IMG/VR virus record: IMGVR_UViG_2547132488_000014
Location: 1-11,916 of that record
Direction: 5' to 3' (one strand)
Origin: a virus
Taxonomy: Duplodnaviria > Heunggongvirae > Uroviricota > Caudoviricetes
Length of the DNA: 11,916 bases
Part shown: positions 1 to 11,916 of the stretch, piece by piece
Layout of the letters: every line of letters begins with the position of its first letter
Position numbering within the stretch: the first letter of the stretch is position 1
The notes under the pieces: model-generated
Database searches by the model: none
What the model was told of the DNA's origin: nothing
The model's input: only the letters and a program-made list of their open reading frames with translations
Position numbers and translations under genes: made by a program

Positions 1-501
1 TTTTATTGTCTCAGGGTTGAGATTTTTTTCTTCAAATTGTTTAGCATCGCCAGATAAAAATTTATTAAACTTAGTTAGTTCGCCTGCAGGAACAGTTCTT
101 TGTATTTCTACATATACAACATTTCGCTCTGGGAAATTATCTCTGCGCCATTTCATCTGTTTAAATTTTGCAGTCCTGTTAATATTTTTATCTTTTGAAA
201 TAGGCTTGTCAGTCAATTCGAATCCAATTTCCCAATCACTCATTGAATCATCCCCATAAAATGATTTAGGGAAAAACTTGCTTGGCTTAACATTTTTATA
301 AGCGAGAGCTACAGCACCTAATATAGTCGACTTCCCTCCACCATTAGTCCCGATAAGAGCTGTAACTGGTGTTTTAAACTCCACAATTTCCTCATCAAAC
401 CCTCTGACATTTTTTAATGTGATACGTTTAACATATTGATTGAATTTATTATCTTGAACCTTACCCCTTTCTAACTTCAATTCTGCTGGAGATAATTTCA
501 T
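1..501 (-). CDS. P-loop NTPase with SMC/ABC-type Walker A motif; N-terminal 167 codons only, 3' end beyond the left window edge
   Basis: Manual minus-strand translation from ATG (499-501) is open to position 1: MKLSPAELKLERGKVQDNKFNQYVKRITLKNVRGFDEEIVEFKTPVTALIGTNGGGKSTILGAVALAYKN... Walker A GTNGGGKST. AAGGA Shine-Dalgarno about 6-8 nt upstream; in-frame stop immediately upstream (511-513). Absent from the ORF track because it has no stop inside the window. Visibly AT-rich compared with the tail genes. Confidence 0.65.
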   Translation of the reverse strand, partial: MKLSPAELKLERGKVQDNKFNQYVKRITLKNVRGFDEEIVEFKTPVTALIGTNGGGKSTILGAVALAYKNVKPSKFFPKSFYGDDSMSDWEIGFELTDKPISKDKNINRTAKFKQMKWRRDNFPERNVVYVEIQRTVPAGELTKFNKFLSGDAKQFEEKNLNPETIK

Positions 502-534
502 TTTAATTCCTTAGTTATAATCACAATAAACATC

Positions 535-579
535 AACTTCACACTAATAATTTCATTTAGAAATTATTAGTGTGAAGTT
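535..579. repeat. Perfect inverted repeat: 20-bp arms (535-554 and 560-579) around a 5-bp spacer
   Basis: AACTTCACACTAATAATTTC / attta / GAAATTATTAGTGTGAAGTT; arms are exact reverse complements. Lies 34-78 bp upstream of the ATPase start codon, so a candidate operator or insulating hairpin. Confidence 0.9.
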
Positions 580-596
580 TATAACCAAACAGACGT

Positions 597-668
597 TTCA
601 TCGCTTCATCGCTTCATCGCTTCATCGCTTCATCGCTTCATCGCTTCATCGCTTCATCGCTTCATCGC
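597..668. repeat. Tandem array of nine perfect copies of the octamer TTCATCGC (GCGATGAA on the - strand)
   Basis: Direct reading: units start at 597, 605, 613, 621, 629, 637, 645, 653, 661, with partial units on both flanks. Intergenic, 96-167 bp upstream of the ATPase start. No intervening spacers, so not a CRISPR array. Confidence 0.95.
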
Positions 669-887
669 TTACCAATATATGTCTTCTCGTTACATAAGAA
701 AAGCATCAGCTGAACGTAATGTCGGAAGCCCCATTGGAAAACCGTCACACCTAATAAATTCAGTACGTTATAAAACAGGGTTGTGATATTTTAAGCCAGT
801 ACCCATGCTAGTAAATATCTACTTAATACATTGATTTTTATGTGTTAAATAAAATCGTTGCCTACATATTGCCTCACTTCGACAGTA

Positions 888-907
888 AGCCCGCAACGTT
901 GCGGGCT
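888..907 (-). terminator. Palindromic GC-rich hairpin 5 nt downstream of the methyltransferase stop codon; putative terminator
   Basis: AGCCCGCAACGTTGCGGGCT is a perfect 20-bp palindrome. The U-tract is better in the + direction (TTTGTCTT) than in the - direction, so terminator function for the - strand operon is uncertain. Confidence 0.45.
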
Positions 908-912
908 TTGTC

Positions 913-1704
913 TTATGCTTCGATCGCCGTTTTGAGCCGTTGTGTTGCTACATCAAAATAATGATCACTGGTTTCTATACCAATAAATTTGCGTCCTGCT
1001 TTCAGCGCTGCAACACCCGTTGTTCCCGATCCCATAAAAGGATCAAGGACTGTTCCACCACTATTCGCAGTCCTGACCAGTTCTGCCATAAGTTCTTCTG
1101 GTTTTCCGGTCGGGTGCATTTTCTTTGATGGGATAACCGGGAACGTCATGCAGCCGTCGAACGGTCCCGAAGGCGATTTATCTAAATGGCCTTTACTGCC
1201 CCAGACGATGTATTCGCACTGATGCCGGAAATACCCCGTATGGGGTGTTCGTGACCCCCTTCCTTTGTTCCACGCAATGATGCCGCGCCATGTAAAGCCA
1301 CTGGCCTGAAACGCATCGGTTAAAGCTGGTAATTGTCGCCAGTCAGTAAATACCAGGGCATAACCGCCCGGCCTGACTGCGCGGTGTGCCTGTGCCATCC
1401 ATAATTGTGTCCAGTAAGCCCACGAACGGGCGTCCATGTTTTCACCCGCGAACCCATCAAAACGGTGAAGGCTCTCGCCGTTCAGATATTTTGCATGGCT
1501 GCCCTGGTTGGTGCGTCCGGCCTTGTGTGTCGCACCCGAACTGTAAGGCGGGTCAGTGATTAAGGCATCAATGCTTTCTGGCTCAATCAGCGGCAATATT
1601 TCCAGCGCATTCCCACGACAGAGCGTGGCATTGTCAGTCTGATAAACCTTAGTGTGTTCCGGTGTATGTGCTGGTTGGTGCTGGATTGCGATCCCCACGG
1701 TCAT
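913..1704 (-). CDS. DNA amino-methyltransferase, beta-class (N6-adenine or N4-cytosine), orphan: no cognate restriction gene in the window
   Basis: 263-aa ORF with motif IV DPPY (ITDPPYSS) N-terminal to motif I FxGxG (DPFMGSGTT), the circularly permuted order typical of beta-class N6A/N4C methyltransferases. ATG at 1702-1704. Confidence 0.88.
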   Translation of the reverse strand: MTVGIAIQHQPAHTPEHTKVYQTDNATLCRGNALEILPLIEPESIDALITDPPYSSGATHKAGRTNQGSHAKYLNGESLHRFDGFAGENMDARSWAYWTQLWMAQAHRAVRPGGYALVFTDWRQLPALTDAFQASGFTWRGIIAWNKGRGSRTPHTGYFRHQCEYIVWGSKGHLDKSPSGPFDGCMTFPVIPSKKMHPTGKPEELMAELVRTANSGGTVLDPFMGSGTTGVAALKAGRKFIGIETSDHYFDVATQRLKTAIEA

Positions 1705-1846
1705 AACTCCTCATGTGTGTGGGGTGCTCGATGGCTCTCGTTATCTGGTTAAGTGTTTTGCAGCGCGGACATTTTATTTCAATGTAGTGAAATGAGGCGC
1801 GGGCAAGTAGTTTGTTGCAATTTTTGCATCGTACATTTTGCGTCAT
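1649..1846 (-). CDS. com: Com-like zinc-finger protein (phage Mu Com family translational activator), overlapping the methyltransferase start
   Basis: Translation MTQNVRCKNCNKLLARASFHYIEIKCPRCKTLNQI... has a CxxC-N16-CxxC zinc ribbon closely resembling Mu Com as recalled (RCKNCNKLL...HIEI.CPRCK). ATG at 1844-1846 with AGAGG Shine-Dalgarno 8 nt upstream; an in-frame GTG at 1853-1855 is the alternative start. Stop at 1649-1651 is 55 nt inside the methyltransferase ORF, in a different frame. Confidence 0.7.
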   Translation of the reverse strand: MTQNVRCKNCNKLLARASFHYIEIKCPRCKTLNQITRAIEHPTHMRSYDRGDRNPAPTSTYTGTH

Positions 1847-1893
1847 TTGCGGCACCTCTTGTGTGGTTACTGCTGCCGATATGATAACAAATC

Positions 1894-1928
1894 GATCGTT
1901 TTTATCGATCGGATTTATTGCATCGATC
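1894..1928. promoter_or_regulatory. Cluster of three GATC (Dam) sites, each within ATCGATC, in the presumed promoter region of the com-methyltransferase operon
   Basis: GATC at 1894-1897, 1907-1910 and 1925-1928, embedded in aATCGATCg, tATCGATCg and cATCGATCt. Lies 50-80 bp upstream of the com start on the - strand. Resembles the three-GATC regulatory region upstream of the Mu mom promoter. Confidence 0.4.
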
Positions 1929-1976
1929 TGTTATGCCTATTGCTTATGTATGGTGCCCTCATTTGTGAGGGTAGCA

Positions 1977-2010
1977 AAAAGAAAACCCGCAGTTTTTACG
2001 CTGCGGGTTT
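1977..2010 (-). terminator. Rho-independent terminator downstream of the TM2-domain gene
   Basis: Stem 1985-1992 ACCCGCAG pairs with 2001-2008 CTGCGGGT, extendable by two A:T pairs. On the - strand it is followed by UCUUUUUG. Sits about 25 nt after the TM2 gene stop (2036). Confidence 0.7.
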
Positions 2011-2035
2011 GTTGTTCTGATTCGCCCACTAGGCA

Positions 2036-2332
2036 TTAGCCATATTTGCGGGCAAAGTCTTCATCAGAGGTGCATAGATAGATAAAAAACTCAATAAATG
2101 CCACGATTGCCGGAATGAATGTCCAGCAAAAAATAAGGTAAAGGAATCCTTGCCCCACTTTACCTAAATAAAATTTGTGTGCACCAAGACCACCTAAAAA
2201 GAAAGCCAGTAGTGCGGCTGTCATTCTGCTTTTTGAACTTGCTGTTCTTTGAGGTGCTCCACAATTGGGGCAGGATGTGGCATCTTTATGTATTTCCTTG
2301 CCGCATCCGCGACAAAATACCATTTCACTCAT
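2036..2332 (-). CDS. Small membrane protein with N-terminal zinc ribbon and TM2 domain
   Basis: 98-aa ORF: CRGCGKEIHKDATSCPNCGAP (two CxxC) followed by two hydrophobic helices and a GGLGAHKFYLG motif typical of TM2-domain proteins. AAAGGAAC Shine-Dalgarno upstream of ATG at 2330-2332. Confidence 0.8.
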   Translation of the reverse strand: MSEMVFCRGCGKEIHKDATSCPNCGAPQRTASSKSRMTAALLAFFLGGLGAHKFYLGKVGQGFLYLIFCWTFIPAIVAFIEFFIYLCTSDEDFARKYG

Positions 2333-2467
2333 AAAGAGTTCCTTTCAAATTTAAATAAGCGTTAAGCCCACCACTCTTACTGGTGGGCCTCAATTTAAAT
2401 TTGGGTGCCACTTCGACCATACCTTGGCAACCGATTGACGGGGGATTGCTCCCCCGTCGCGGTTTCC

Positions 2468-2608
2468 TTACTGCTTACACTGTAAGAACGCCGCAAACTC
2501 CGCTCCCCAGAAGCTCATCCGTATTTCACACAGCGAACCGTGTAGCATCCAGATGATGAGGATTACCGTCACGCAGAACGTGATGGCCGTAAGCGATTTT
2601 TGCGACAT
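2468..2608 (-). CDS. hok: Hok/Gef-family type I toxin (small membrane-active killer peptide), 46 aa
   Basis: Manual translation MSQKSLTAITFCVTVILIIWMLHGSLCEIRMSFWGAEFAAFLQCKQ: short polar N-terminus, one transmembrane helix, SLCEIR identical to plasmid R1 Hok, and AAFLxCK tail as in HokA. AAGGAG Shine-Dalgarno about 7 nt upstream of ATG (2606-2608); TAA stop at 2468-2470. Below the length cut-off of the ORF track. Confidence 0.7.
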   Translation of the reverse strand: MSQKSLTAITFCVTVILIIWMLHGSLCEIRMSFWGAEFAAFLQCKQ

Positions 2609-2799
2609 AGCGCTTGCTCCTTTGTTGGAGAGGCGCTAACCTATCACTTGCTTAAGGTAGATATGTTAGGGCCTCGGTTAAACAAAAATGTTTTCCGGGG
2701 CCTTTCCACATCTGGCCTTCGGGTATTCCCTCCGACCATCAGCCGAAAGGCACCCGCGCGTAATCTATCGCTTTTTTGTTACTCCGGCAATTCTGCCTG

Positions 2800-3060
2800 T
2801 TAATTCTGAGGTAAAGGCAAACTCATCTGATTGTTTCCCCTGTGTGAAGCTGGCAGTTCATGCCACGGGATACCTTCTGAAGAGTGAACGCCGGAGGCAT
2901 GTTTCGATGTGAATTTATGGAAAGCTTCCAGTGTTGAGAAGCATACGCCGCATTCCAGATTGTTACACTGGTAATACTTTTGCCGCACGGTGTTTGAATC
3001 ATTTTCCGGACGACTGGTGCGGATACGGGCAGATGCGCCACAAAGCGGACAACGGAACAT
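2800..3060 (-). CDS. ogr: Ogr/Delta-family zinc-finger transcriptional activator of phage late genes
   Basis: Begins MFRCPLCGASARIRTSR...YYQCNNLECGVCF, matching the N-terminus and Cys spacing of P2 Ogr as recalled (MFHCPLC...). Immediately downstream of gpD, as in P2. Confidence 0.85.
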   Translation of the reverse strand: MFRCPLCGASARIRTSRPENDSNTVRQKYYQCNNLECGVCFSTLEAFHKFTSKHASGVHSSEGIPWHELPASHRGNNQMSLPLPQN

Positions 3061-3102
3061 AGCGACCTCCCTTAACGTGGTGCTGCCGCTATTCTAAGTT
3101 GC

Positions 3103-4212
3103 TCACTCTGTTTCCGCTATCCATTCCGGGATTTTTGCCTCAAGCTCAAGCTGCGTGGTAAAGCCGCTGTTATCAATGGTGTGCTCGGCTTTTGCAATAA
3201 TCCAGTCCTGATTATCAATCTCGCTTTTAAATCCTGTTACCGTGCCATGCATTTCGGGGTAGAGTTCTGCACGTCCACGCGCCAGCGTGATGGAGAATGA
3301 TGCGGCTCCGCGTTGTAGCTGCTGCCACTTTGCCGCCGCTGCGCGTCTTGCTGCCTGCTCGTTCTGATAAGTCTTGCGTAACACAAACACATTGCCTTCC
3401 GCGCCTTCCATATAATCACCTTCACGGCTGCTGCTTTTCTCCTTTTTGGGCTTGGGCGGTTTGCGGCGTTTCACGCTGACTTTTTTCTTTTTCCCGTAAT
3501 TAAGATCAAGCCAGTAAGCGCGTACCCCCGTATACGCTTCGCGGTCAGCAATGCGGAACTGATGGCGATCGCCGCTGCTGCGTGTGATGGCAAACGATGG
3601 CAACGGCTGGCCCTGTGCGTTCACGCCGCCGCCGGGCATGATGAATAACAGATTACCGCTTTTTACCGTGGTGATTGCGCCCAGCATTTCCGCCATGCGC
3701 GTAAGGAAGGACATGTCGCTTTCTTCGGTCTGGTCGGCGTGGTCGATTTCGATATCCATCAGCATTTCGCTGATTTGCGGTTTCAGACCATACCGATGAG
3801 CGATGGCGGATACCACACGCTCAACGGTCACATCATGCCAGGACACCTCACGTTTAACGTTAAATTCATCCCGAAAATCTGCGCTTCTGGCTGAAACAGT
3901 CAGCCTGTCCGGCGGTCCTTCGTGAGCGATTTCATCAACAATGTAAGTGCCTTTTTCTGTCAGCGGTTCTCCCTTCCAGCCAATGAGAACCGTCAGGCGC
4001 GCGCCCCGTGGCGGTAGCTGCAACTGACCATCCGCATCATCCAGCATGATGGTGAGCTGGTCCGCCTCAAATCCCCGGTTGTCGGTCAGTGACAGGCTCA
4101 TCAGGCGCTCTGCCACGCCTGACAGCGTTTTACCCTCCGCGAGAATATCAAAATCCGGCATTTTCACGGGGTCTGTGCCCTGACTGAGCAATTGCATGGT
4201 GGTGTCGGTCAT
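3103..4212 (-). CDS. D: Tail protein gpD (P2 late control gene D family)
   Basis: Large ORF directly upstream of ogr on the same strand, about the size of P2 gpD. Start set at the internal ATG (4210-4212; MTDTTMQLL...), preceded by GGGAGGGAG. The ORF-track start at 4344 adds 44 residues with no ribosome-binding site. Confidence 0.85.
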   Translation of the reverse strand: MTDTTMQLLSQGTDPVKMPDFDILAEGKTLSGVAERLMSLSLTDNRGFEADQLTIMLDDADGQLQLPPRGARLTVLIGWKGEPLTEKGTYIVDEIAHEGPPDRLTVSARSADFRDEFNVKREVSWHDVTVERVVSAIAHRYGLKPQISEMLMDIEIDHADQTEESDMSFLTRMAEMLGAITTVKSGNLLFIMPGGGVNAQGQPLPSFAITRSSGDRHQFRIADREAYTGVRAYWLDLNYGKKKKVSVKRRKPPKPKKEKSSSREGDYMEGAEGNVFVLRKTYQNEQAARRAAAAKWQQLQRGAASFSITLARGRAELYPEMHGTVTGFKSEIDNQDWIIAKAEHTIDNSGFTTQLELEAKIPEWIAETE

Positions 4213-4369
4213 CTGCTCCCTCCCTGTGTGGCATGGTCGCATGTGCGTGCGGAGGGGGTTACTGCTTTTTGTTGTCGCCGTGGCGGGAGAATGGCGCAGG
4301 GGTGAGATTGCGCGCGTGGTGGGTGATGATTGTTGCCGAATCATTTAACGGATACAAGGGGCTGAAGCT

Positions 4370-5554
4370 ATGAGTGAAACTCGTTTTCATGGTGCCCGTG
4401 TTACGGAAAATACCGACCTGGTAACAGCGATTAACGATGTTGATTCCAGCGTTATCGGTATCGTGGCAACGGCGGATGATGCGGACGCGAAGCTGTTCCC
4501 GCTGAACAAGCCCACACTGCTGACCCGCGTCAATGACGTGCTGGGAAAATGCGGGACAACGGGGACGCTTTATCGTGCGCTTAAGGCCATCGCAGACCAG
4601 GTGAGCACAAAGGTGATCGTCGTTCGCGTGGCTGAACACAAAGAAGAAGACGGAAAAACGCAGGATCAACTGGTTATCGGTGGTTCTGAATCTGACGGCA
4701 GCTATACGGGGATGTATGCGCTGCTTGTTGCAGAGCAGGATGAAAGCATCGGATACCGTCCGCGTATTCTGGCCGCGCCGGAGCTGGACACGGAGGCGGT
4801 GACAAAATCCCTGTGCGTGATTGCGGGTAAACTGCGCGCGTTTGTGTATGCCTCATGTCACGGCTGTAACACGATGGCTGAGGCAATTACCTACCGCCAG
4901 AAATTCAACGAACGAGAGGTGATGCTCTTATGGCCGGACTTCATCGCCTACAACCCGAAAAGTGGCAAAAACGAAACGTTCCCCGCGCCTGCCTATGCGT
5001 GCGGCCTTCGTGCGTACATTGACCATGAACAGGGCTGGCACAAATCGCTGTCCAACGTTCCGGTTAAAAATGTGCTGGGGATGTCCGGGCATGTGTTCTG
5101 GTCGTTGCAGGCCGAAGACAGTGATGCCAACAGCCTCAACAACAAAGAAATCACGACCATTATTCGTCGCAACGGGTTCCGCTTCTGGGGCAACCGCACA
5201 CCGGAAACGAACGCCTACATCTTTGAGGTGTATACCCGAACCGCACAGGTGCTGGCTGATTCAATTGCGGAAGCGCAGTTTGAAACCATCGACAGTCCGC
5301 TGACGCCTGCGAACGTGAAGGATGTTATCAGCGCCATCAGGGCAAAACTGGATTCACTGGTGACTGCCGGGAAACTGATTGGGGCGTCGTGCTGGTATGA
5401 CGTGGTGGATAACGGCACCACGAATTTACGTCAGGGGCGCGTGCGTATTCGCTACAAATATACGCCAGTTCCCCCGCTGGAAGACATGGAGCTTTACCAG
5501 TCGTTTACTGATGAATTCTTTGGTCCCGCATTTGCGGTGCTGGGAGGTGCCTGA
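4370..5554 (+). CDS. FI: Contractile tail sheath protein (gpFI)
   Basis: 394 aa, first gene of a sheath-tube-chaperone-tape measure-gpU series; size and position as in the P2 FETUD operon. AAGGGG Shine-Dalgarno 9 nt upstream of the ATG. Confidence 0.88.
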   Translation: MSETRFHGARVTENTDLVTAINDVDSSVIGIVATADDADAKLFPLNKPTLLTRVNDVLGKCGTTGTLYRALKAIADQVSTKVIVVRVAEHKEEDGKTQDQLVIGGSESDGSYTGMYALLVAEQDESIGYRPRILAAPELDTEAVTKSLCVIAGKLRAFVYASCHGCNTMAEAITYRQKFNEREVMLLWPDFIAYNPKSGKNETFPAPAYACGLRAYIDHEQGWHKSLSNVPVKNVLGMSGHVFWSLQAEDSDANSLNNKEITTIIRRNGFRFWGNRTPETNAYIFEVYTRTAQVLADSIAEAQFETIDSPLTPANVKDVISAIRAKLDSLVTAGKLIGASCWYDVVDNGTTNLRQGRVRIRYKYTPVPPLEDMELYQSFTDEFFGPAFAVLGGA

Positions 5555-6066
5555 TGGCTGTACCAAAACATCTTCGCTTTTTTACGCTGTTTGTGGATGG
5601 TGAAAACGAAGTGGGTAAGGTGACGTCCGTCACCCTGCCTAAACTGACGCGCAAAACCGACAGCTACCGGGGTGGCGGCATGATGGGAGCGGTAAGTATT
5701 GATCTCGGCCTGGATGACTCCGCGCTTGATGCGAGCTTTGTCATGGGGGGCGCAGTTCGTGAGCTGTTCCTTAAGTATGGCGGCACGATTGACGGCACGC
5801 TGCTGCGTTTTGCGGGTGAATACTACACCGATGCAGAAAGCGACCTGTATGAAGTCGAAATGCGCGGACGTGTGACGGAAATTGATATGGGGGAAGCCAA
5901 ACAGGGCGAAGCCACATCACACACTTACGCCATTAAAAACACCTACTACAAGCTGAGTGTTAACGATCGCCCGTTGTGGGAGATTGACCTGCTGAACTTC
6001 ATCTACCGGAAGGACGGCAAGGACATTGTGCCTGACCGTATCCGTTCCGCGCTTGGGCTTGGCTGA
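5554..6066 (+). CDS. FII: Tail tube protein (gpFII)
   Basis: 170 aa directly after the sheath gene; its ATG overlaps the sheath stop (TGATG), indicating translational coupling; GGGAGGTG upstream. Confidence 0.85.
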   Translation: MAVPKHLRFFTLFVDGENEVGKVTSVTLPKLTRKTDSYRGGGMMGAVSIDLGLDDSALDASFVMGGAVRELFLKYGGTIDGTLLRFAGEYYTDAESDLYEVEMRGRVTEIDMGEAKQGEATSHTYAIKNTYYKLSVNDRPLWEIDLLNFIYRKDGKDIVPDRIRSALGLG

Positions 6067-6120
6067 TAAGTAATATGCAGGCGGCGCAGTGCGTCGCCTC
6101 TGACTGAAAGGAGTTTCCTG

Positions 6121-6486
6121 ATGAAAGAGACGAAAAACATCGATACCGAAAACACGGTAGTTACTGACACTGTGAAAGAAACCAGTGAGCGTGGCGTAAA
6201 ACTTACCCAACCCATTGAGCGAGGCGACGAAAAAATCACGTATGTGGAGATCACCGGGGCTATTGAGCAGGCTGGATCTCTGCGAGATTTGTCGCTGTCT
6301 GATGTGCTGAATCTGAAAGCGGAATCCATGTTTACGCTGCTGTCACGCGTGACATCACCGCGACTGGATGAAGTGACGATCAAAAAAATGGCATCCCGTG
6401 ACTTTATTCAGTTATGTGTGGTTGCCGTAAATTTTTTGAGCGGTGCGGACTCTGGCGGGAAGAACGAACAGGCGACGGAAGCCTGA
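6121..6486 (+). CDS. E: Tail assembly chaperone gpE (zero-frame product)
   Basis: 121-aa ORF between tube and tape measure genes; contains the slippery heptamer near its 3' end. Confidence 0.82.
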   Translation: MKETKNIDTENTVVTDTVKETSERGVKLTQPIERGDEKITYVEITGAIEQAGSLRDLSLSDVLNLKAESMFTLLSRVTSPRLDEVTIKKMASRDFIQLCVVAVNFLSGADSGGKNEQATEA

Positions 6487-6650
6487 TCACGGTTGTGTGC
6501 TTTGAGCACATAGAAGACTTTGTGGCAGATATTGCCGTTATTTTTAACTGGTCGCCCGCCGAAATCTTCATGATGACGCCCGGCGAAGTGGTTAGCTGGC
6601 GTGAGCGGGCGGCACTTCGCAGCGGGAGGGCAGACAATGAAGACTCTTGA
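6121..6650 (+). CDS. E': Tail assembly chaperone E+E', product of a programmed -1 ribosomal frameshift near 6432-6438
   Basis: The -1 frame ORF 6414-6650 overlaps the 3' end of E and ends at TGA 6648-6650, overlapping the tape measure start. The heptamer T TTT TTG sits in X XXY YYZ register in the E frame. Same architecture as P2 E/E'. Confidence 0.75.
6432..6438 (+). other. Slippery heptamer TTTTTTG (programmed -1 frameshift site for E/E')
   Basis: E-frame codons AAT TTT TTG place the heptamer in X XXY YYZ register; the -1 frame is open from this point to 6650. Confidence 0.75.
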
Positions 6651-9444
6651 TATCCGGGTCGCTTTCAGCGCCGTTGACAGGCTGACCCGGCCTGCCGAAA
6701 ACGCCCGCCGCCTGATGGGGCAGTTTGGTGACTCCATCCAGCGAACGCAGGGGGCGATCAAAAATCTCGAGCGTCAGGCGCGTTCATTTGAGCGCGCCCG
6801 CGACGCTGTCAGTAAAGCGGATGCGGGCATCGTGAAAGCACGACGCCAGCTTAACGCCCTTAATCAGTTACAACGCACGGGTACAGTGCTCAGCGAAAAA
6901 CAACAAAAGCTGATGCAGCAGTTAAGCACCCGGCTTGAACGCCTGAATGAATCGCGCACACGGGAAATTCAGAAAATGCGGGAACTTGGCGGAGAGCTGA
7001 AACGCCACGGCATTTCCCTGACAGGCAGCGATAACACCATCCAGCAGGCCATCAGACGCACCGAACAGTACAACAACCAGCTTGAACGCGAACGGCAGGC
7101 GCTTGCGCGTGTAACGCGGGCGCGTGAGCGGTATTCGCGCGCGCAGGAAACCGCGGGAAAACTGAAAACAGGTGGTGCGCTGGCAATTGGTGCGGCAGCG
7201 GCTGGCGGCTATGCTACCGGGCGTTTTTTGCAGCCTGCGATCGGGTTCGGGAAAGAGATGTCCCGCGTTCAGGCACTGACGCGAATCGACCAGAACAGCC
7301 CGCAGTTTAAGGCGCTGCGTGAGCAGGCGTTAAAACTTGGCTCTGAAACGCAGTTCACCGCAGGCGATGCCGCCAGTGGACAGGCATTTCTTGCAATGGC
7401 TGGCTTCACTCCACAGGCCATTCAGGCTGCGCTTCCCGGCGTGCTGAGCATGGCAACGGCTGGCGGTATGGATCTCGGCGAGACGGCAGATATTGGCTCA
7501 AATATCCTGACGCAGTTCGGCCTTTCTGCTGACCAGATGGACCGGGTCGGTGACACACTCACCGCAGCGTTTACCCGTACCAACACTGACCTTCGCGCAC
7601 TGGGCGAAACCATGAAATATGCAGGTCCGGTGGCGGGTAAGCTGGGAATATCGCTGGAGCAGGCCGCAGCGATGGCTGGCGTGCTGGCGAATATGGGCAT
7701 CAGAGGGAGTGATGCCGGGACGGCAATGCGTGCCAGCCTGGCTCGTCTGGCATCACCGCCAAAGGCGGCGGCAGAGGCGCTGAAAGAGCTTGGTGTGGCA
7801 GTTTCTGACGCGAACGGCAAAATGCGCCCGATGGAGGATGTGCTGGCCGACCTTTATAAAGCCACCCGCAAATACGGGGAAGTTGACCGGGTATCCTTCT
7901 TTAAGGACATCGCCGGGGAAGAGGCTTTCACATCGTTTATGGCGCTCGTTGATGCGGCAGGTGACGGTTCCTTACCCAAACTGAGAAAAGAACTTGAAGG
8001 CGCACGCGGTGAGGCTGAACGCACGGCAAAGGTTATGGCCAACAACCTTGATGGCGATCTGAAATCACTCGGCAGTGCATGGGAAGGGTTGCGCATCCGC
8101 ATTGCAGATCTGATTGACGGCCCGCTGCGTTCTGTCACGCAGTGGCTCACGCGGGTGGTATCAAGGGTGACGGCGCTGGCGCAGGCCCATCCGGCACTGA
8201 CGCGCCAGTTACTGATAGCAGGCGGTGCGTTGCTGGCAATGACTGCAACGATTGGCTCGTTGTCGCTGGTTATTGGCGTGCTTCACGGGAAACTGGCCAC
8301 GTTACGTCTTGGTTTTTCTCTCCTGACCGGATCAATGAATGTCGTCAGGGTGCTGCCAGCACTATGGGGAATGGTAACAGGTTCCATCTCGTTGCTGGGT
8401 GGCGCTATCGGGGCGCTGTTCAGTCCGGTCGGATTGATTGTTGCCGCGTTTGTGGCTGCGGCGGTTCTCATCTGGAAATACTGGGAACCCATCAAGGCGT
8501 TTTATGCCGGGGTGTTCAGTGGGATTATGGAACGGCTGGCTCCGTTGCGCGAAACCTTTGAACGGTTTGGTCCTGTTTTTGATGTCGTGCGCGATGGGAT
8601 TATTCAGCTCTTTAACTGGTTTAAATCGCTGCTGTCACCGATGGAGTCCAGCAAGGAAACGCTGGATAAATGTACCAGTGCTGGCGAGATATTCGGTAAC
8701 GTTCTTGGTGGCGCGCTACAGCTTGTTCTGACGCCTGCAAAAATGCTGCTGGATACGCTGGCGTGGATACTTGAAAAACTCGGTGTGCTTCCGGATGAAG
8801 CGGAAAGGGCGAGAAAGAAAATCGAAGACGCACAGCGTGCGGCCATTCTTCAGGACAAGGTTGCCTTGCTTCAGGGGGACCTGGCGAAAATCAATCCGCC
8901 GAAGCCTGTGGAAAATGGCAATGGCACCGGAGGTGATAAACCCAAAGACAATAAACCGCTCACAGACAGCAACACCGGAACGCTACGCAGGCTCAGCAAA
9001 ATTGCTGATAACACAGGTAAGCTGGTTGATGAGACGAAAAAACGCATTGGCCCCGGCGATATTGTCTTTAAGAACCTGCCCCGCGCACTTGCTGTTCGTG
9101 GGGAGTGGCAGGAGCGGAAGATTGCGCAGGTCAGTAAGCCTGCCCCCGCAATTAATATCCCCCCCGTGGTCCCGGCTCCGCTGCCTCCGGCGCTGGTCCC
9201 TGTTGTTGCGGCCAGCTCCCGCCCGGTGGCGGAGGCCATACGATCGCCAGTGGCATCAGTTCCTGTAACTTCCCGTAACCGGGAGCCTGTTGCCTCCGGA
9301 TTTGGTGGTGAAATTCATGTTCATCTGCATAACGTTGTTACGCAGAATCCCCGCGAACTGGCGAAACTGGTCGGTGAAATGGTCAGGGCAGAAATGGAAC
9401 GGCGCGCCCGTGCCGGGCGTGGCAGTTTTTACGATAAAGATTGA
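6637..9444 (+). CDS. T: Tail tape measure protein (gpT)
   Basis: Largest ORF in the window. N-terminal coiled-coil-like region, central Gly/Ala-rich hydrophobic segments, Pro/Ala-rich C-terminal region. Start set at ATG 6637 (MKTLDIRV...), preceded by GGGAGGG, rather than the GTG at 6601. Confidence 0.9.
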   Translation: MKTLDIRVAFSAVDRLTRPAENARRLMGQFGDSIQRTQGAIKNLERQARSFERARDAVSKADAGIVKARRQLNALNQLQRTGTVLSEKQQKLMQQLSTRLERLNESRTREIQKMRELGGELKRHGISLTGSDNTIQQAIRRTEQYNNQLERERQALARVTRARERYSRAQETAGKLKTGGALAIGAAAAGGYATGRFLQPAIGFGKEMSRVQALTRIDQNSPQFKALREQALKLGSETQFTAGDAASGQAFLAMAGFTPQAIQAALPGVLSMATAGGMDLGETADIGSNILTQFGLSADQMDRVGDTLTAAFTRTNTDLRALGETMKYAGPVAGKLGISLEQAAAMAGVLANMGIRGSDAGTAMRASLARLASPPKAAAEALKELGVAVSDANGKMRPMEDVLADLYKATRKYGEVDRVSFFKDIAGEEAFTSFMALVDAAGDGSLPKLRKELEGARGEAERTAKVMANNLDGDLKSLGSAWEGLRIRIADLIDGPLRSVTQWLTRVVSRVTALAQAHPALTRQLLIAGGALLAMTATIGSLSLVIGVLHGKLATLRLGFSLLTGSMNVVRVLPALWGMVTGSISLLGGAIGALFSPVGLIVAAFVAAAVLIWKYWEPIKAFYAGVFSGIMERLAPLRETFERFGPVFDVVRDGIIQLFNWFKSLLSPMESSKETLDKCTSAGEIFGNVLGGALQLVLTPAKMLLDTLAWILEKLGVLPDEAERARKKIEDAQRAAILQDKVALLQGDLAKINPPKPVENGNGTGGDKPKDNKPLTDSNTGTLRRLSKIADNTGKLVDETKKRIGPGDIVFKNLPRALAVRGEWQERKIAQVSKPAPAINIPPVVPAPLPPALVPVVAASSRPVAEAIRSPVASVPVTSRNREPVASGFGGEIHVHLHNVVTQNPRELAKLVGEMVRAEMERRARAGRGSFYDKD

Positions 9445-9450
9445 GGAGTC

Positions 9451-9945
9451 ATGGCCATGATGATGATCTACGGCATGTTTGTTTTTGAGCTGCGCACGTT
9501 GCCGCATCAGCAGTTACAGCAAAACAAAAGCTGGCGGCATGTGAAAAATGAACGCGTTAACCGTTCAGCAAGCTGGCAGTATATCGGGGCAGGCGATGAT
9601 CGCATCGTTCTTTCTGGTGTGCTTTATCCTGAAATTACAGGTGGCGAAGTGTCGCTTTCGTTGCTGACCACACAGGCATATACAGGACGCCCCTGGCCTC
9701 TGATTGATGGTGTCGGGCAGATTTACGGCATGTATGTCCTGACCGGAACGAATACGACCCATTCCGAGTTTGATCGCTACGGTAAGGCGAAAAAGATAGA
9801 ATTTTCACTGACCCTTGAACGCTGTGATGAGGATTTGCGGGGGCGCCTGCAATCCTCATCGTTCAGCGATATGCTGTCCGGCTTCAAAGATAAGGTGACA
9901 GCATCCATTAACAACGCGGCCAGTTCAGTTAAAGGGCTGTTCTGA
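9451..9945 (+). CDS. U: Tail protein gpU
   Basis: 164-aa ORF directly after the tape measure gene, GAGGAG upstream. Start is ambiguous among ATGs at 9451, 9457, 9460 and 9463 (MAMMMIYGMFVFELRT...). Confidence 0.78.
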   Translation: MAMMMIYGMFVFELRTLPHQQLQQNKSWRHVKNERVNRSASWQYIGAGDDRIVLSGVLYPEITGGEVSLSLLTTQAYTGRPWPLIDGVGQIYGMYVLTGTNTTHSEFDRYGKAKKIEFSLTLERCDEDLRGRLQSSSFSDMLSGFKDKVTASINNAASSVKGLF

Positions 9946-9946
9946 T

Positions 9947-10159
9947 TTGGAAGAGCAGAGGCAGCAGGCGGAAAATGAAAAGCAAAGCCTGCTACAGCTC
10001 GTCAGGGATAAAACCCAGCTATGGGACTCACAGCTACGGCTGGGCATCATTTCCGACGAGAATAAACAAAAATTAACCGAGTGGATGCTCTATGCGCAGA
10101 AGGTCGAATCCACAGACACCTCCAGCCTGCCAGTAACGTTTCCAGAACAACCAGAATGA
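9947..10159 (+). pseudogene. Truncated tail fiber assembly protein (Tfa) C-terminal fragment, no ATG start
   Basis: The 70-residue reading frame (..QQAENEKQSLLQLVRDKTQLWDSQLRLGIISDENKQKLTEWMLYAQKVESTDTSSLPVTFPEQPE) aligns with the C-terminus of the intact Tfa on the other strand (..[63 protein letters not shown]). Frame is open only from 9899, has no ATG (first candidate is TTG at 9947, 1 nt after the gpU stop), and lacks the N-terminal two thirds. Confidence 0.6.
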
Positions 10160-10162
10160 AAC

Positions 10163-10189
10163 AAGGCCCGCTATCGGGCCTTAATTTTT
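10163..10189. terminator. Bidirectional Rho-independent terminator between the convergent Tfa fragment and Tfa
   Basis: Perfect 8-bp stem AAGGCCCG / CGGGCCTT with loop CTAT, followed on the + strand by AATTTTTATT. Lies 3 nt after the + strand stop and 5 nt after the Tfa stop on the - strand. Confidence 0.7.
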
Positions 10190-10715
10190 ATTCAGGCTTT
10201 TGTGGCCATTCAGGATTTGCCGTATCCACACGGCTGACCAGAACGCTGTAGCGTTCCCATGCTTCCAGTCGTGTGCGTTCCTCGTCTGTTGCCATATTCA
10301 GCCTGACAGCGCGTTCCAGCGGCTGGATGACTGATTCAGCTTCGGAAATCAACGCGGCCTTTTGTGATTCGGCCTGTTGTTGCTGTTCGTCAGCCGTATA
10401 AATCCGCTTAATCACAGCACCATCCTTAAACATCCATTTACCTGAGTCATCAGCACGTCGGTTGGCGGTAATATCAGGAACCTCGACAACGCTAAAACCT
10501 TCAGGGTTAAGCGTGGAGGCATCTTTGGTGATGGCGACAATAATATTATTTTCGTCGTATACAATCTTTATGGTGTCGTCCTGAAAGTTATTTACTTCCT
10601 CATACCAGTTTTTACCGTCTTCTGTATATAACCAGATAACATCAAAATTCTTTGTTAGCTGACATTGCTCTTTTGTTTTTGGATTTCCTGACTTAATATT
10701 TTTTAAATGCTGCAT
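10188..10715 (-). CDS. G: Tail fiber assembly protein (Tfa; P2 gpG / Mu U family)
   Basis: 175 aa with the conserved Tfa C-terminus (...[27 protein letters not shown]). ATG 3 nt after the tail fiber stop (TAA ATT ATG), AGGTG upstream. Confidence 0.88.
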
Positions 10716-10718
10716 AAT

Positions 10719-11916
10719 TTACACCTGTGCGACGTTATACCATGTGCCATTGATGTATTTTTGTATTGGTCTGAAGATGGCTTCATCATCGCCATCTACT
10801 TCACCAATGATTCTTAATCCGGTAATTGCGTGTCCGGCTTTTTCATAACGACCACCACGCGCCATCAATTGAACAACACGCGTACCCAGGCGAACATCTT
10901 TCACATAACGGGAATCAAAGTTACCGTAATCCGAGGGGTTAACACGCCCTGTAATATTTATGGTTTTATTACTTTGAATGCTGCCGGAGACAAAGCGCAT
11001 AACATGGACGTTATTAGCATAAACGTCCAGATTACCGTCGCCATTTTGTTTAAAGCCCGTGTCATTATCACCCAAAACAATCGAGTTACCGCCAAGAGCA
11101 CTGGATGTTCCGATACCCAGTGCACCATTCAATTGACCACCAGATAATGACAACGCCCCAACATCAGCAGCAGTCGGTTTTATGTGCGAACTGTAAATTA
11201 CATATACAGTCCCATCTGTCAGGCCTGTCGGTTTATTCGCTGTATAAGTTGGTGATGTATGAATTTGTACAGTGGCATCCTTTGTATAATCCCACTGGAT
11301 ATTAACACCCGTGGCGTAATTACCTATTTCTACATAAATGTCATAGGTATCACCGGATGTATTCACCCATGCAAAATTAGTAAATCCAACCGAGGTCCGT
11401 CGCCATAATGCACCAGTAATACCCTTTGGATTTCCATTTCCGGCACGCAGAACCAGCTCAGAGATGCCTGCTTGCTGCGGGGAGCCAACGTTATACCCTG
11501 CACCACCAATCAGACTTATGTAAACCACGGAACTGGCTTGTGGCATTGTTACAGTTGCCAGTTTGAACCATCCAGCACCACCACTAAAAGACATGGTTGT
11601 TGAATTTGTTGTGCCGATATTACGCAGGAATAGTTTTTTATCGGGAATATCTGCGCCGTTCTGGTTTTTCTGTAATGCGCCAGAAGCCTGATTTACCGTT
11701 TCCTGTAAACCGAGGTATTCGATAACGGCGGCAACGGTCGATTTCGCAAGAATATCCCGCCCTACTTTTGTCAGAGTTGCCAGGCTGGCGACATCATTCC
11801 CCGTAAAATACGGAAACCTGTCTGCCGCAGTAGCAAGCCCGGCCAGCGCCGTCAGGGTGGCATCTTTCGGTTGCTTACCCGCAAGCGCGTTAGTCATGGT
11901 GGTCGCAAAATTCGGG
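10719..11916 (-). CDS. H: Tail fiber protein (P2 gpH-like), C-terminal part; 5' end lies beyond the right window edge
   Basis: Frame is open to the window edge with no stop upstream of the listed Met at 11897, so the gene is 5'-truncated by the window. Contains the tail-fiber junction motif ...LTALAGLATAADRFPYFTGNDVASLATLTKVGRDILAKSTVAAVIEYLGLQET... followed by a Gly/Ser/Thr/Asn-rich distal region. Directly upstream of Tfa. Confidence 0.85.
   Translation of the reverse strand, partial: PNFATTMTNALAGKQPKDATLTALAGLATAADRFPYFTGNDVASLATLTKVGRDILAKSTVAAVIEYLGLQETVNQASGALQKNQNGADIPDKKLFLRNIGTTNSTTMSFSGGAGWFKLATVTMPQASSVVYISLIGGAGYNVGSPQQAGISELVLRAGNGNPKGITGALWRRTSVGFTNFAWVNTSGDTYDIYVEIGNYATGVNIQWDYTKDATVQIHTSPTYTANKPTGLTDGTVYVIYSSHIKPTAADVGALSLSGGQLNGALGIGTSSALGGNSIVLGDNDTGFKQNGDGNLDVYANNVHVMRFVSGSIQSNKTINITGRVNPSDYGNFDSRYVKDVRLGTRVVQLMARGGRYEKAGHAITGLRIIGEVDGDDEAIFRPIQKYINGTWYNVAQV
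11700..11725. other. gix/cix/pix-like 26-bp sequence (candidate Gin/Pin-family DNA invertase crossover site) inside the tail fiber gene
   Basis: TTCCTGTAAACC GA GGTATTCGATAA compared with the Mu gix site as recalled (TTCCTGTAAACC GA GGTTTTGGATAA): 24 of 26 identical. Encodes the IEYLGLQE junction of the fiber protein. Confidence 0.45.

Follow-up and report, generated by a model that had tools for sequence, protein, structure and literature searches.

The Mu G-segment (gin) and the e14 P-segment (pin) are made up of a constant fibre N-terminus, two alternative fibre C-termini, each accompanied by its own tail fibre assembly protein (Tfa), and a serine invertase. The C-segment of P1 and P7 contains cin, the crossover sites cixL and cixR, and the gene pairs Sv/U and Sv'/U'. 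A segment of this kind also resides in the P2-family phages P88 and P88_4B11, in Citrobacter phage Shae_phiSM and in hundreds of Escherichia coli prophages, where gpU is followed by a serine invertase, a second variable fibre part (Hv') and a full-length Tfa' of 177 aa. Tfa' and Tfa-H are arranged tail-to-tail, and the segment is delimited by inverted cix/gix-like sites. More precisely, the DNA between gpU and Tfa in P88, P88_4B11 and E. coli FDN-11, TUM13881 and EC21Z-048 consists of a short terminator hairpin, the invertase gene, Hv' and Tfa'. The invertase comprises 199 aa with Resolvase and HTH_7 domains and is encoded on the opposite strand, and Hv' is a promoterless fibre C-terminus. In E. 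coli EC21Z-048, two inverted 30-nt sites are located 2.8 kb apart, one beside the invertase gene and one inside H, and both align with the annotated P7 sites cixL and cixR. The segment of the relatives is a classical host-range switch of the Mu-G / P1-C type.

Here, we describe a prophage locus in which only part of such a segment is present. A sequence-only reading of this DNA had taken two tail-to-tail Tfa genes as the sign of an invertible host-range segment. The relatives bear this out, because they possess both the invertase and the inverted cix/gix-like sites. The full second fibre/Tfa cassette with an adjacent invertase, sought in related genomes, was found in P88, P88_4B11 and hundreds of prophages. 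At the very locus considered here, full segments are present in P88, P88_4B11 and the E. coli genomes FDN-11, TUM13881 and EC21Z-048.

Genomic context of the locus

The window, i.e. the whole stretch of DNA analysed (positions 1-11916), corresponds to the full length of contig APZX01000030.1 (11,916 bp) in draft assembly GCA_000357685.2. Judged from gene order and nucleotide identity, it represents the tail region of a P88-like prophage (Xuanwuvirus, Peduoviridae; P2 family). Up to its end inside H, the window follows the gene order that defines Xuanwuvirus, D-ogr on the minus strand, FI-FII-E-E'-T-U on the plus strand and Tfa-H-I-J on the minus strand, and it is colinear with P88_4B11 as well as with numerous E. 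coli prophages (94-98% nucleotide identity). Minus-strand genes in the left part encode an ATP-dependent nuclease (start of the gene only), a DNA methyltransferase, a Com-like zinc-ribbon protein, a TM2-domain protein, a Hok/Gef-like ORF, ogr and gpD. They are followed on the plus strand by FI, FII, E/E', T and U, a 70-codon frame and a hairpin, and at the right, again on the minus strand, by an intact Tfa gene and the 3' part of H, which exits through the window end. The right end of the contig lies inside H, 190 nt beyond a cix-like site, and was probably caused by a repeat-induced assembly break. The FI-U block is inverted relative to P2. This inversion was considered as part of the rearrangement and rejected, since the order is native in P88 and all relatives.

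The left part of the window contains a perfect 8-nt tandem repeat, TTCATCGC (GCGATGAA when read on the minus strand), in 9.2 copies at positions 597-670. It precedes the nuclease start (about position 501, minus strand) by 96-170 nt. The nuclease gene encodes AAA_15/AAA_21 domains and runs out of the left window end. Copy number of the repeat varies among near-identical prophages (9.2 in ETEC1749, 13.2 in HCP5S3_I2), and the tract could modulate expression of the prophage nuclease gene, possibly a defence gene, through slipped-strand changes. The Com-like zinc-ribbon ORF (1649-1855, minus strand, GTG start, very weak Shine-Dalgarno (SD) sequence) overlaps the start of the N6/N4 DNA methyltransferase gene (913-1704, minus strand). 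This layout resembles Mu com-mom, with the methyltransferase replacing Mom. A Hok/Gef-type toxin ORF of 46 aa is located at 2468-2608 (minus strand) and is annotated as Hok/Gef or MokW-like in relatives. An Rfam scan of the window at gathering threshold returned no match, and hence neither Sok nor a hok-mRNA family.

The gpU tail gene (9457..9945, plus strand) encodes a protein of 162 aa from ATG 9457, in agreement with the gene call, while the ORF lister places the start at 9451. The protein matches Pfam Phage_P2_GpU with E=7.4e-39, is intact and has the same length as in the relatives, and its gene is the last one of the FI-FII-E-T-U operon. Further downstream, a bidirectional intrinsic-terminator-like hairpin (10163..10182, both strands) separates the convergent 70-codon frame and the Tfa gene. 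It is flanked by the stop codons of the two frames (10157-10159 and 10188-10190), is accompanied by T-runs on both strands and scores terminator-like in both directions. With a predicted RNA folding energy of -21.9 kcal/mol (z=-4.68) it is more stable than any of 200 shuffled sequences, and it is conserved in the relatives. The notion that two Tfa C-termini converge on a common hairpin is therefore well founded.

On the far side of the hairpin, the intact Tfa gene (10188..10715, minus strand) encodes 175 aa that match Pfam Caudo_TAP over profile positions 2-131 (E=4.6e-37). At the nucleotide level it is 99.6% identical to its counterpart in Yersinia phage vB_YpM_39, and its product is an expressed chaperone. 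Next to it, the variable C-terminal part of H, Hv (10719..11699, minus strand), is fused in frame to the constant part, Hc (11726..11916, minus strand), which is an open frame to the window end and is 99.5% identical to P88_4B11. An orphan cix/gix-like crossover site, TTATCGAATACCTCGGTTTACAGGAA (11700..11725, minus strand), marks the boundary between constant and variable part. The Hv reading frame, 98.4% identical to the vB_YpM_39 fibre, is unbroken through this site to the window end. The site is the single match in the window, where none is expected by chance, and it aligns with annotated P7 cixR and with both EC21Z-048 sites. No inverted-repeat partner was detected within positions 9400-11916, whereas the relatives have two sites 2.8 kb apart.

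The Tfa of the window (10188-10715) and Tfa' of EC21Z-048 (4678-5211), which represent the two paralogues of one invertible segment, show 71% identity in their N-terminal 107 residues and only about 32% in the C-terminal 69. This is the opposite of the generalisation made in the literature, according to which the N-domain of Tfa is variable and the C-domain conserved (PMC9608196). Two classes of C-domain can be distinguished, '...LGIISD...LPVTFPEQPE' and '...LNMATDEE...PEWPQKPE'.

The 70-codon frame is a remnant of a second tfa gene

The open reading frame at 9947-10159 (plus strand) spans 70 codons, starts with TTG and lacks an ATG. Its first base follows the gpU stop codon (TGA, 9943-9945) after 1 nt, such that the frame directly follows gpU, just as the sequence-only reading had described it. 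BLASTP aligned residues 2-70 with the C-terminal residues 109-175 of Tfa at 32% identity and 58% positives (E=4e-9), and the frame is a member of Pfam Caudo_TAP (PF02413) with E=5.7e-22 and 78.7 bits, compared with a cutoff of 22.1. Both the proposed homology to the Tfa C-terminus and the relatedness to Tfa on profile comparison are thereby substantiated. Coverage of the profile is confined to positions 62-131 of 131, in line with the statement that the N-terminal part of Tfa is missing along with an ATG.

The origin of the stub became apparent from the relatives. Its 69 residues are all identical to residues 109-177 of the intact Tfa' in EC21Z-048, and the corresponding DNA differs by one synonymous substitution in 242 nt. 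Positions 9949..10159 (plus strand) thus comprise codons 109-177 and the stop codon of a 177-codon Tfa' gene, encoding the C-terminal helical domain only. The full two-domain Caudo_TAP architecture is absent, as the stub lacks residues 1-108 of its 177-aa parent. Among the missing parts is the N-terminal domain by which Tfa of Mu binds the fibre (PMC9608196). Neither an ATG with an SD sequence of its own nor a cognate fibre gene directly upstream is present; the upstream neighbour is gpU.

When compared with the segment of P88 and other Xuanwuvirus members, the window shares the genus-level backbone (94-98% nucleotide identity), the locus, the shared hairpin, the crossover site in H and a Tfa' sequence that is 95-99.5% identical. 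It differs in the absence of the invertase, the second site, Hv' and Tfa' codons 1-108, and is a dead derivative of that segment. The likeness extends to the C-segment of P7: positions 9949-10928 of the window are 93.5% identical to it, all 69 residues of the stub are identical to residues 15-83 of gpUb, the chaperone genes are tail-to-tail, and the site in H aligns with annotated cixR. P1, however, is a plasmid prophage and the window belongs to a P2-family myovirus prophage that has neither a cin homologue nor a second cix site. Likewise, in contrast to the Mu G- and e14 P-segments, the window keeps only one cassette and one site. The chaperone gene of P7 C(+) (positions 3178-3711 of record L012) is annotated as two ORFs, Ua with 93 aa and Ub with 83 aa, and not as one 177-aa Tfa.

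Expression of the remnant

Gene callers list the stub as a 70-aa 'tail fiber assembly protein'. The only start codon available to it is the TTG created by the junction, and the SD-like pairing upstream amounts to -4.4 kcal/mol, a value matched at 30% of random positions, whereas the true tail genes in the window reach -8 to -14 kcal/mol. A C-terminal extension of gpU, which the sequence-only reading had named as speaking against a vestige, was rejected. The stub frame (9947) is out of frame with gpU (9451/9457), which makes an extension impossible, and read-through of the gpU TGA would add just 10 residues up to a TGA at 9976-9978. The native gpU terminator of the relatives is missing from the window. 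For this reason, the late FI-U transcript probably includes the stub at its 3' end, where it probably forms an untranslated or barely translated 3' UTR.

It is conceivable that ribosomes terminating on gpU reinitiate at the TTG and yield a free 70-aa C-terminal (oligomerisation) domain of Tfa, which might modulate fibre assembly by mixing with the resident Tfa or titrating it, similar to the split gpUa/gpUb of P7. All 70 codons are indeed open, the TTG is separated from the gpU TGA by 1 nt, the late mRNA probably extends over the stub now that the gpU terminator is lost, and in P7 the same sequence is annotated as an 83-aa ORF of its own, gpUb, beside gpUa. On the other hand, the start codon arose by chance at the junction and its SD sequence is weak, the fibre-binding N-terminal domain (PMC9608196) and a cognate Hv' are lacking, identity between the stub and the C-domain of the resident Tfa is as low as 32%, and the junction is private to one contig. 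In addition, an independently formed stub in phage PhiR44_2 and E. coli M00057, described below, carries a premature stop codon, which argues that the coding capacity is not under selection. We thus regard a functional mini-protein as very improbable and as the least likely reading of the locus.

A blunt junction next to gpU

By blastn and alignments with relatives including FDN-11 and EC21Z-048, the breakpoint was placed at 9948|9949, 3 nt after the gpU stop codon. The left side consists of the gpU stop and TTT, and the right side begins with the last base of Tfa' codon 108. Both T residues of the stub's TTG therefore belong to the gpU part, and within the frame Tfa' DNA is confined to 9949-10159. 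Among E. coli sequences, all of the best matches to positions 1-9948 of the window stop at 9948. A likely recombination breakpoint beside gpU had been proposed from the sequence alone, and the alignments place it to the nucleotide. The DNA missing from the window amounts to 1,726 bp when compared with EC21Z-048 and 1,770 bp when compared with FDN-11, and includes the gpU terminator, the invertase gene, one crossover site, Hv' and Tfa' codons 1-108. Searches of the whole 11.9-kb window with tblastn retrieved no match for the EC21Z-048 invertase (best E=0.2) and no Hv', and a query with the Tfa' N-terminus matched solely the resident intact Tfa and nothing in the flanking regions. The second cassette is truncated as suspected, with Tfa' reduced to 69 codons and Hv' and the invertase gone. 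The window retains the tail-to-tail geometry of the Tfa' remnant and Tfa. It does not contain two fibre C-termini each with its own tail-to-tail Tfa, as Hv and Tfa are complete and Hv' is absent, nor are an adjacent serine invertase and two inverted 26-bp sites found in it.

Two mechanisms can be dismissed for the origin of this junction. An invertase-mediated deletion was rejected on the grounds that neither breakpoint is located at a crossover site (3950-3979 and 6774-6803 in EC21Z-048), and a microhomology-mediated deletion because the two parental sequences have 0 nt in common at the junction. From the alignments, the deletion appears to be a blunt illegitimate event that is not site-specific. 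It also appears to be recent, given that the stub is undecayed, with the single synonymous base in 242 relative to EC21Z-048. Taken together, we consider it highly probable that the stub is a non-functional pseudogene, left when one illegitimate deletion of about 1.7 kb hit the invertible segment of a P88-like prophage.

The junction 22-mer, CTGTTCTGATTTGGAAGAGCAG, had 0 matches each in the species-representative genomes (185k), IMG/VR and the JGI metagenomes, and the junction was found in 0 of 5,426 complete E. coli genomes. The window is one draft-assembly contig and the junction is private to it, such that the deletion stands without independent support. This raises the question of whether the real genome contains the full invertible segment and a chimeric read or assembly path joined gpU to the middle of Tfa'. 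The uniqueness of the junction across every collection searched, the complete lack of decay in the stub and the fact that the window is a whole draft contig with its end in H, 190 nt beyond the crossover site, would all fit such an artefact. However, assemblers join at shared sequence and the parents share none at this junction, the contig passes unbroken through the cix-like site, and natural deletions of the same module occur in complete genomes and in a cultured phage. An assembly artefact is therefore judged quite unlikely.

Another explanation starts from a P88-like backbone without an invertible segment, resembling ETEC1749, that gained a block of Tfa' 3' end, Tfa and Hv from another phage by an illegitimate crossover just after gpU and a homologous crossover in H. 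In this case, the stub would have come along as a passenger of the exchange. Window positions 1-9948 are most similar (97.9%) to prophages without the segment, positions 9949-11916 are most similar (98.8%) to the cassette of the unrelated 49-kb Yersinia phage vB_YpM_39, and fibre modules are highly mosaic. Yet import demands two crossovers where deletion demands one, gpU is equally close (96-98%) to gpU of invertase-bearing prophages, and the TGATTT after gpU is common to all relatives. Note that the relatives are mosaic, that identities of the backbone taken segment by segment fit a simple deletion and cassette import alike, and that the exact ancestor, i.e. the window backbone with the window cassette and an invertase, is absent among the relatives examined. 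We consider import quite unlikely; under deletion and import alike, the stub is the vestige of an alternative cassette.

Parallel losses of the invertible module

A different deletion of the invertible module is found in phage PhiR44_2 and in 13 complete E. coli genomes (e.g. M00057). The locus is the same as in the window, the invertase, Hv' and the 5' end of Tfa' are likewise lost, and a 3' stub of Tfa' and the shared hairpin are left. The breakpoints, however, are independent of those in the window. In the PhiR44_2-type deletion, the gpU terminator is retained together with 59 nt from the 3' part of the invertase gene, the sequence resumes at Tfa' codon 132, and the junction shows 3 nt of microhomology. 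The resulting stub is shorter and contains a premature TAG. RefSeq treats it as a pseudogene ('tail fiber assembly protein, incomplete, missing N-terminus'). A further state is represented by ETEC1749-type prophages, in which gpU is followed by a single Tfa and H without any trace of the module; these prophages provide the closest match to window positions 1-9948 (97.9%). In FDN-11, the invertase gene is a pseudogene whose product lacks the C-terminus (9962-10378 of record L001), while both fibre cassettes are intact. FDN-11 has reached a locked switch by a third independent route.

Configuration counts were taken over the 5,426 complete E. coli genomes. A P88-type gpU 3' end is present in about 1,330-1,360 of them, and gpU adjoins an invertase gene in at least 631. 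The ETEC1749 type, with gpU followed by a single Tfa, occurs in 18 genomes, the PhiR44_2-type stub in 13 and the junction of the window, as stated above, in none. The phenomenon of the stub, its gene family and its sibling stubs are already known and annotated, and the stub is an ordinary decay product.

Proposed history and consequences

According to the history that we favour, a single deletion in an invertible segment, the ancestor would have been a P88-like prophage with the order gpU, terminator, serine invertase, crossover site, Hv', Tfa', shared terminator, Tfa, Hv, crossover site and Hc. One blunt, homology-free deletion of about 1.7 kb would have removed the gpU terminator, the invertase gene with its enhancer, one site, Hv' and Tfa' codons 1-108 and joined the gpU stop plus 3 nt to Tfa' codon 109. 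The fibre would thereby be locked as Hc-Hv with Tfa, and with a single site left, inversion is predicted to be impossible, even if an invertase were supplied in trans. The late FI-U transcript would cross the stub and end at the shared hairpin (10163-10182). Survival of the stub can be explained by the expectation that a longer deletion would destroy this terminator and the essential Tfa; it would not be kept for any function.

With regard to annotation, the stub is better marked as a pseudogene than as a 70-aa 'tail fiber assembly protein'. For the prophage, the loss of the invertase, with one cassette and one crossover site remaining, means that its host range is no longer switchable. It may be speculated that the lone cix-like site could still recombine with sites of other prophages if the cell contains an invertase. 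Together, the window, the PhiR44_2-type deletions, FDN-11 and the ETEC1749-type prophages indicate that the invertible module of P88-like prophages has been lost repeatedly and by different routes.
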